Shown piece after piece: positions 18,947 to 19,903 of a DNA stretch of 64,000 nucleotides; position 1 is the first letter of the stretch; each line of letters starts with the position of its first letter. This stretch comes from Octopus sinensis. Lineage: Eukaryota. The stretch lies in assembly GCF_006345805.1 (NCBI RefSeq), contig NC_043003.1:20336001-20400000 (forward strand), given 5' to 3'. The notes under the pieces were generated by a model. That model was not told the origin of the DNA. It worked only from the letters and a program-made list of their open reading frames with translations, and made no database searches. Position numbers and translations under genes: made by a program.

Positions 18947-19201
18947 ATTAAATCATTCACTGAAGCAAAAATATCAAATATTCCCTAAAATGTATTTCTG
19001 TTCCTTTTCCAACTTTATTTACTTTTTTAACTGTATATATATAATAGTTATCGCCATACTAATATGGCATTCTTATAAAAATAAGAAAAAAGCTGTCCGC
19101 TTATTAGCTCCATGAGGCCATCGCCTTAAGTTAGCTATTTGATACACAAACTGTATCCATATAACCTTCGAACATGGGAGGTCCGTCGCTCCACACTACT
19201 T

Positions 19202-19261
19202 GACCGGCAGCTACAGACGCGTTTCGGGGTATTGCCCCTTTTCAATGCAGCGTAGCCAGCC
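19202..19261 (-). ncRNA. Minimal hammerhead ribozyme motif (antisense twin of 19561-19620)
   Basis: Reverse complement of the motif at 19561-19620. Confidence 0.8.
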
Positions 19262-19560
19262 AGTAGGTGTCGCTTCCGACAATCTCTGTTCGATGGTTTT
19301 ATTTACCTAGTTTCGGTGGAATACATCCACTTGTTTTCAATAATAGAAATATTAAAATAACTAAGTCTCTCTAAAAGAGAACAGCGGCAGCGTTCCCGGA
19401 AGATAATAGTTATCGCCATACTAATATGGCATTCTTATAAAAATAAGAAAAAAGCTGTCCGCTTATTAGCTCCATGAGGCCATCGCCTTAGTTAGCTATT
19501 TGATACACAAACTGTATCCATATAACCTTCGAACAGAGATTGTCGGAAGCGACACCTACT

Positions 19561-19620
19561 GGCTGGCTACGCTGCATTGAAAAGGGGCAATACCCCGAAA
19601 CGCGTCTGTAGCTGCCGGTC
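19561..19620 (+). ncRNA. Minimal type I hammerhead ribozyme motif, U3-A8 variant, predicted cleavage after GUC at 19606
   Basis: GCTGCA | TTGAAAA | GGGG-CAATA-CCCC | GAAA | CGCG | TC | TGTAGC; helix I extends via GGCTGGC/GCCGGTC. Confidence 0.8.
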
Positions 19621-19841
19621 AAGTAGTGTGGAGCGACTGACCTCCCTTGTTCGAAGGTTATATGGATACAGTTTGTGTATCAAATAGCTAACTTAAGGCG
19701 AGGCCTCATGGAGCTAATAAGCGGACAGCTTTTTTTCTTATTTTTATAAGAATGCCATATTAGTATGGCGATAACTATTATTTTCCGGGAACGCTGCCGC
19801 TGTTCTCTTTTAGAGAGACTTAGTTTTTTAATATTTCTATT

Positions 19842-19903
<62 letters not shown>

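Follow-up and report, generated by a model that had tools for sequence, protein, structure and literature searches.

Non-LTR retrozymes of metazoans are hammerhead-bearing repeats of 150-450 bp that are expressed as circles, and those described from molluscs have units of 350-390 bp (PMC7229834). On the strength of co-occurrence and sequence trees they have been argued to be non-autonomous derivatives of Penelope elements, and the same work counts a retrozyme locus as 'active' when two units in a row each have a complete hammerhead (Li et al. 2026, 10.64898/2026.07.22.740005). According to a 2020 review, the animal repeats have no motif from which the autonomous element responsible for their movement could be recognised (PMC7761336).

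The published layout of Penelope-like insertions is a partial tandem next to which stands an inverted, 5'-truncated copy, with a tail of 30-40 bp at one end and a bias towards (TA)n (PMC8557442). The Adineta elements have an inverted pLTR that overlaps the direct one by 15 bp at head-to-head, palindromic junctions, and pLTRs alone are reported to mobilise non-coding cargo in trans (PMC3846280). According to work on the Poseidon protein, it cleaves and extends both target strands in vitro from two internal start sites that delimit the tail, and ribozyme cleavage is dispensable for this (PMC11167929). Penelope-like elements also carry hammerheads of a minimal type, for which the U3-A8 core (in the Cercyon elements of Schistosoma) and opposite-strand pairs 100-700 bp apart have already been published (PMC4209133). 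The element described here joins a retrozyme-type unit with a Penelope-type insertion; each of these features has separately been published before.

Structure of the locus

The window, by which we mean the whole 64-kb stretch of DNA analysed, is AT-rich, animal-type DNA that is rich in microsatellites and dispersed repeats. The element lies within (TA)n and has the block order X-Y-Z-X-Y'-X'-Z', which amounts to one and one-third units set head-to-head with an inverted partial copy. Its parts are as follows.

19033..19041, no strand: short stretch of (TA)n bounding the element on the left, target microsatellite (sequence; (TA)n loose ends in runs)
19041..19535, minus: left arm of 495 nt, or 1.37 units, reading X'-Z'-Y'-X' in the ribozyme sense, a partial tandem (sequence)
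19041..19402, minus: a complete unit of 362 bp with 42% G+C and without a long ORF; folded as a circle it is predicted to be highly self-paired (folding; ring closure)
19158..19303, minus: long imperfect hairpin, an extended helix I, with the hammerhead at its tip and TCGAACA/TGTTCGA at its foot (predicted, -62.2 kcal/mol for 146 nt)
19216..19245, minus: type I hammerhead core, U3-A8, left-arm copy (sequence/descriptor)
19338..19402, minus: Z2, a 65-nt segment between two recurring family ends, putative equivalent of the Penelope 'tail' (loose ends; right end only)
19529..19535, no strand: inversion junction, 7-base exact overlap (sequence)
19529..19845, plus: right arm of 317 nt, an inverted, 5'-truncated copy Y'-X'-Z2' that terminates in the tail (sequence)
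19571..19612, plus: type I hammerhead, predicted cut after 19606 (sequence/descriptor; motif of PMC2632901)
19846..19908, no strand: long stretch of (TA)n bounding the element on the right, target microsatellite (sequence)

The block order and the 362-bp period proposed by the initial annotation were both recovered by block comparison. The first copy of X (block X1, 19041-19174) and the second (block X2, 19403-19535) are separated by a single 1-base indel in 134 positions, and the period is 362, or 361 past the indel. Against its inverse (19529-19647), Y (19175-19293) shows 2 differences in 119 bases, while the inverted X (block X3, 19648-19781) shows two indels against block X1 and three against block X2. 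Taken over their 317 positions the arms have 6 differences and are about 98% alike. The annotation also had the sequence continue as inverted X and Z; X is indeed inverted whole, whereas 19782-19845 is the inverse of 19338-19402 only, that is, 64 of the 109 bases of Z, with one indel and one substitution. The shared heptamer TCGAACA at which the strands were said to switch is real, although it lies at 19529-19535 and not at 19528-19534; the overlap is exact over these 7 bases, and likeness extends to 14 of 16 bases over 19520-19535. Y itself is flanked by an inverted repeat (TCGAACA at 19168-19174 and TGTTCGA at 19287-19293), which forms the foot of the hairpin enclosing the ribozyme. Besides the element itself, no further copy of the 362-bp unit was found within the 64-kb window.

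There is no stop-free frame of 120 codons overlapping the element. A 38-codon ATG frame (19294-19423, minus strand) runs from near the end of X' through all of Z'. Penelope pLTRs and tails contain an ORF start, and for this reason the frame may be an ORF remnant, or it may be there by chance.

The hammerhead ribozyme

On the plus strand a type I hammerhead can be followed from a helix I of 6 pairs through the core TTGAAAA (19577-19583), a 4-pair helix II of GGGG/CCCC with a CAATA loop, GAAA at 19597-19600, and the pair A15.1-U16.1 with its CGCG loop to a terminal TC, with the cut predicted after C19606. A mirror hammerhead occupies 19216-19245 on the minus strand. The intact ribozyme with U3-A8, GGGG/CCCC helix II and CGCG loop that had been read from the DNA, one per strand, is therefore present as claimed. 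The internal loop adjoining helix I has a 5' U and a C in its last position and loop 2 has a 3' A, which on sequence grounds are the contact nucleotides of the Schistosoma-type loop-loop motif (PMC2632901).

In order to set this motif against chance, we used a structural descriptor that admitted either core and demanded at least 4 pairs in both helix I and helix II, with 100 block-wise dinucleotide shuffles as the control. It matched three times in the 64 kb, at the two element copies and at 18914-18942, compared to a mean of 0.02 per shuffle, and matches with a palindromic loop III arose in 0 of the 100 shuffles, so that chance falls far short of explaining the motif. A search against Rfam produced no hammerhead, either at the gathering score or, over 18800-19900, at E <= 10. 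When metagenome contigs and viral contigs were scanned for exact patterns of the core, there were 0 matches in each.

Helix III consists of one pair and a palindromic tetraloop, as in HHR_Amex1 of the axolotl, and an axolotl hammerhead with a one-pair helix III is reported to be 6% cleaved as a monomer and to cleave efficiently as a dimer (PMC7229834). The two CGCG halves co-fold at -8.9 kcal/mol. By this analogy a hammerhead with a one-pair helix III likely needs a dimer to cut, and self-cleavage by the present one is predicted.

With the minimal Penelope hammerheads the ribozyme shares the U3-A8 covariation, the palindromic helix III and the opposite-strand pairs 100-700 bp apart. However, in the minimal type as described in the same source helix II is long and helix I short, A9 is followed by an additional base, and the loops make no contact (PMC4209133), whereas the element has helices of 6 and 4 pairs, does not have the extra base in the window's copies and carries the Schistosoma-type contact nucleotides. 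We rejected the minimal class for the element on account of these canonical helix sizes, the missing extra base and the contact nucleotides. One contig each of sequencing runs X2 and X7 (introduced below), read by eye from 8 loose letters at position 19241, appears to be a family variant in which a free core position (N7) is changed and one base is added before helix II, with U3 and A8 kept.

A separate stretch of Z (19304-19340, minus strand) resembles a decayed hammerhead, with a U3-A8-type core, a 5-pair hairpin, GAAA and CTAG. A descriptor fitted post hoc to that stretch matched 1 of 5000 unit shuffles. As a working second hammerhead it was rejected, since the strict descriptor does not match it and its structure is lost in common variants at 19311 and 19315. 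The second family end (19338-19340), described in the next section, coincides with the start of its core.

The repeat family and its insertion footprint

The initial annotation had proposed looking for other genomic arrays with a 362-bp period, and the existence of many further copies is supported by public sequencing data. We searched the contigs of public sequencing runs for sampled words of 18835-19845; 20 of the 24 listed runs (11 studies, 7 organism codes) contain 0.40-0.60 of these words, and none of the listed holder runs is on record as RNA. For closer comparison one unit with its left flank (18835-19402) was set against the contigs of four of these runs, which we call runs X1, X2, X7 and X9 and which are not to be confused with blocks X1 to X3; run X9 may be RNA and was not taken as evidence of expression. 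The summed contig depth in run X2 is 154,540-811,859 over the unit compared to 53.5 on the adjoining flank piece, which shows no differences. Runs X1 and X7 show a contrast similar in kind, with the unit 3-4 orders above the flank in the three DNA-like runs, although summed contig depth is not copy number and can be read only as 'very many'. The 362-bp unit is thus a very abundant family in several related organisms.

Contigs with the joint that leads from 19401 back to 19041 number 10, 2, 3 and 3 in the four runs, and X, Y and Z are bridged by further pieces, which indicates closure of the unit into a ring. From this closed graph of contigs we infer same-strand hammerhead dimers in the family, the contigs being too short to show a dimer. 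Folded as a circle, the 362-nt unit reaches a predicted -121.9 kcal/mol with 66% of its bases paired (z -6.9), and 0 of 100 shuffles were as low; judged by this folding, a 362-nt circle is plausible for the family.

The element resembles the metazoan non-LTR retrozymes in being non-coding, in the size of its unit (362 bp, as in the 350-390 bp of the mussel repeats), in a G+C content below 50% (42%), in its many genomic copies, taken from contig depth and not as a copy number, in its canonical type I hammerhead with normal helix sizes and loop 1-loop 2 contact nucleotides, and in its self-paired predicted circle (PMC7229834). It differs from them in its U3-A8 core where theirs is C3-G8, and the window copy, known here from DNA sequence alone, bears a single ribozyme on each strand together with an inverted arm, whereas the main text of that report never uses the word 'inverted' (PMC7229834). 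With a single hammerhead on each strand, the locus falls outside the 'active' rule of Li et al. 2026.

Two kinds of contig end bear on how the family inserts. Among the loose ends listed, those before 19034 run into (TA)n in all four runs (23, 12, 6 and 2 contigs), and those before 19340 do so in at least 33 contigs of one run, X1. Both ends of the insertion are therefore recurring family ends, and they lie 65 nt apart on the RNA. Three other opposite-strand joints within the unit (19076/19119, 19113/19200 and 19160/19380) were found in one contig each, which suggests that inversions recur in the family at varied places. The inversion junction at 19529-19535 is absent from the 11 joints listed for the contigs of the four runs, and in a single case a contig of run X9 joins (TA)n directly behind 19175, the hairpin foot. 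With this absence and only one truncation at the same place, the idea of TCGAACA as a recurrent hot spot is unsupported. The copy's private letter at 19184 is also unseen in runs X2 and X7, so these runs may not show the window copy at all. Two changes in the left arm are private, one of which breaks a stem pair. When the five listed hairpin variants were placed in the window's copy, three lowered its predicted energy by more than 1 kcal/mol, one was neutral and one raised it, against a baseline in which 10.5% of all 438 single changes lower the energy by more than 1 kcal/mol. With the variant at 19294 the foot of the hairpin gains a longer exact overlap, of 12 bases.

The locus can now be compared with the endonuclease-bearing Penelope-like elements. 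It has a partial tandem with an adjacent inverted, 5'-truncated, head-to-head copy and a short overlap, a tail on one side between two ends that recur beside (TA)n (19041 and 19338-19340, the second in one listed run), and a microsatellite target, with (TA)n on both sides of the element and at loose ends of all four runs. All of these are features of the described elements (PMC3846280, PMC8557442, PMC11167929), as is the internal start of reverse transcription (PMC11167929). This combination of partial tandem, inverted 5'-truncated copy, one-sided tail and microsatellite target is the published Penelope signature and points to Penelope-like machinery; together with the contig ends beside (TA)n, it supports the Penelope-type origin that had been suggested for the locus (PMC8557442, PMC3846280, PMC11167929). 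There are differences as well: the tail is 65 nt compared to 30-40 bp (PMC8557442), and the element has no RT-endonuclease ORF. A target-site duplication is unreadable in (TA)n at this locus. No Penelope-type RT or GIY-YIG domain was found by Pfam among the 91 stop-free frames of at least 75 codons in the window, and hence no autonomous partner within it. The sole Pfam match of these frames is a LINE-type zf-RVT at 41038-41481.

In L1 twin priming an inverted 5' segment is joined by microhomology to a direct 3' segment. The element shares the inverted 5' segment and the microhomology joint with the products of this process, which is the subject of PMC2837659, but unlike them it has no poly(A), is longer than one unit and has two fixed ends.

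Other repeats surround the element. A second, different repeat (18888-19032) abuts it tail-to-tail across the (TA)n tract and contains a minimal-type hammerhead motif with a U3-A8 core and a CCGG palindrome (18909-18947, plus strand). Its depth peaks on the motif, at about 4,000-5,300 in runs X1 and X2, the majority letter at 18947 gives helix I of this hammerhead a fifth pair, and an opposite-strand joint (18922/18976) is found in two runs. It is probably the terminus of a different Penelope-like family lying in the microsatellite that also holds the element. Between (TA)n tracts at 19905-20550 there is a MITE-like palindrome with arms of about 280 bp that is 87% self-complementary. Elsewhere the window holds a 5S rRNA-derived fragment (12373-12475, minus strand; 40.3 bits, good over the first two thirds only), a pseudogene or SINE head; three tandem 184-bp copies (17714-18265) of a dispersed repeat that is also found near 30740, 31260 and 52760; a tandem duplication (56050-57671) with a period of about 806 bp and 95% identity; and, on the minus strand at 41038-41481, the LINE-type ORF fragment, whose zf-RVT match is weak (E 0.00032, below the curated cut-off).

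Origin and meaning of the insertion

In our view the locus probably results from one insertion event, in which a 362-bp non-LTR retrozyme, abundant and non-coding, entered a TA microsatellite, likely in trans through a Penelope-like RT and endonuclease, with two cDNAs joined at the hairpin foot. Under this reading both strands of the (TA)n target would have been nicked, allowing two priming events. The left cDNA would start at the end of X (19041), extend for 495 nt across the cut site and beyond one unit, and stop at the hairpin foot, whereas the right cDNA would start 65 nt further on the RNA, at the tail end (19845), and in 317 nt pass through the hairpin and cross the cut site. Because the left cDNA exceeds one unit and the cDNAs cross the cut site, the template would have been a circular or an uncleaved multimeric RNA. 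The 3' ends of the two cDNAs would be the two strands of the hairpin foot; they would thus be complementary and could anneal via TCGAACA/TGTTCGA and be filled in, giving the head-to-head inversion. In the ribozyme sense the arms indeed point outwards, one ending at X and the other at X plus the tail. The X9 contig that ends at the hairpin foot beside (TA)n is a single, weak parallel for the stop of the left cDNA. Elsewhere in the family, tandem units would yield RNAs with predicted dimer cutting via the CGCG palindrome and closure into 362-nt circles.

Tandem-then-inverted copying had initially been said to fit template switching during Penelope-type reverse transcription. The Penelope-type origin is supported, but we rejected one simple switch by which synthesis returned to the copy already integrated, as this would continue into the left flank and block X3 instead runs into Z. 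The main rival to two-ended priming is fold-back self-priming, which calls for the same element and enzymes: one cDNA (Z2-X-Y-Z-X) would fold its TCGAACA end onto its own TGTTCGA and be extended as far as the tail at its 5' end, and at integration the tail on the left would be trimmed off. We regard it as improbable though well worth keeping in mind. It accounts for the exact end of the right arm at the tail and for its entry into Z rather than flank, and block X3 is nearer block X1 (two indels) than block X2 (three). Self-priming has been proposed for head-to-head Penelope junctions (PMC3846280), as has endonuclease resolution of the tail (PMC8557442). Yet it requires an extra trimming exactly at the other family end, and in vitro two start sites, together with extension of both target strands, account for the tail (PMC11167929); the sequence differences between the arms appear to fit two-ended priming and fold-back alike. 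Quite unlikely, in our judgement, is a rearrangement at the DNA level, in which opposite copies in one (TA)n tract were joined by deletion via the 7-16-base inverted repeat, or replication switched template in a longer array. The inverted repeat bounding Y would be a natural substrate and the tract does contain other insertions (18888-19032 and 19905-20550); however, a switch between two repeats of one unit would invert Y alone, and the layout found is the standard Penelope one. That the arms are so alike and that neither carries the family's majority letter at 19359 also points to one template.

An assembly or library chimera is very improbable. No listed run rises above 0.60 of the sampled words, the junction is missing from the joints listed, and such structures are known to trouble assemblies (PMC8557442), but contigs drop rare variants, and the private 19184 letter is likewise unseen in runs X2 and X7. 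The fold-back of this molecule would moreover give identical arms and run into the left flank, while here the arms differ at 6 places of 317 and the right arm enters Z and stops at a true family end, which makes a chimera unlikely. The locus had further been credited with two mutually exclusive folds, and both can be computed; they are nevertheless far from equal. Folded without constraint, either strand pairs X-Y with Y'-X' (257 pairs) and masks the ribozyme, at -565.0 kcal/mol on the plus strand and -567.3 on the minus, compared to -479.3 and -476.2 when this pairing is forbidden and the ribozyme exposed, so that the masked fold is favoured by about 86-91 kcal/mol. With the alternative fold, each strand has its ribozyme hairpin intact, and on the minus strand the exposed fold could arise first during transcription, while on the plus strand the masked fold would form first. 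A functional switch, in which the locus is transcribed and toggles between masked and exposed ribozyme, is nonetheless the reading to which we give least credence. Besides the stability of the masked fold, each strand has only one ribozyme, with a one-pair helix III of a type that cuts poorly alone (PMC7229834), two private changes mark the left arm, one of them disrupting a stem pair, and any tandem-plus-inverted insertion gives such alternative folds. A single ribozyme per strand does not allow the locus to free a monomer by cutting twice, and given the dominance of the masked fold the window copy is likely inert; we treat the two folds as a by-product of the inversion.

Going back to an insertion by two joined cDNAs, the whole may be extended to the family, albeit tentatively and with less confidence than the origin of this one copy. 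The family would consist of thousands of copies that carry a U3-A8 hammerhead with full tertiary contact, missed by Rfam, and whose 362-nt circles are copied by Penelope-like enzymes from two fixed internal starts; every insertion would bear a tail-and-inversion footprint, and the hairpin foot would both stall one cDNA and supply the joining overlap. Our literature search found no description of this 362-bp family, no canonical-build U3-A8 hammerhead in a retrozyme and no tail and inversion footprints of retrozymes, although earlier surveys may already include the family or describe such motifs.

The value of these observations lies in the family rather than in the window copy, which as a single locus is probably inert. 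The family carries a physical Penelope-type footprint, with two fixed ends, a tail, an inverted arm and a (TA)n target, on a repeat with a canonical-type hammerhead, and it draws attention to the fact that Rfam overlooks hammerheads that combine a U3-A8 core with a canonical build. Its abundance makes the insertion model testable on thousands of junctions. If the reading of two start sites and a hairpin foot is true, the family would provide direct genomic proof of the machinery by which animal retrozymes are moved, and it would offer a simple reason why the inverted junctions of Penelope insertions are palindromic.
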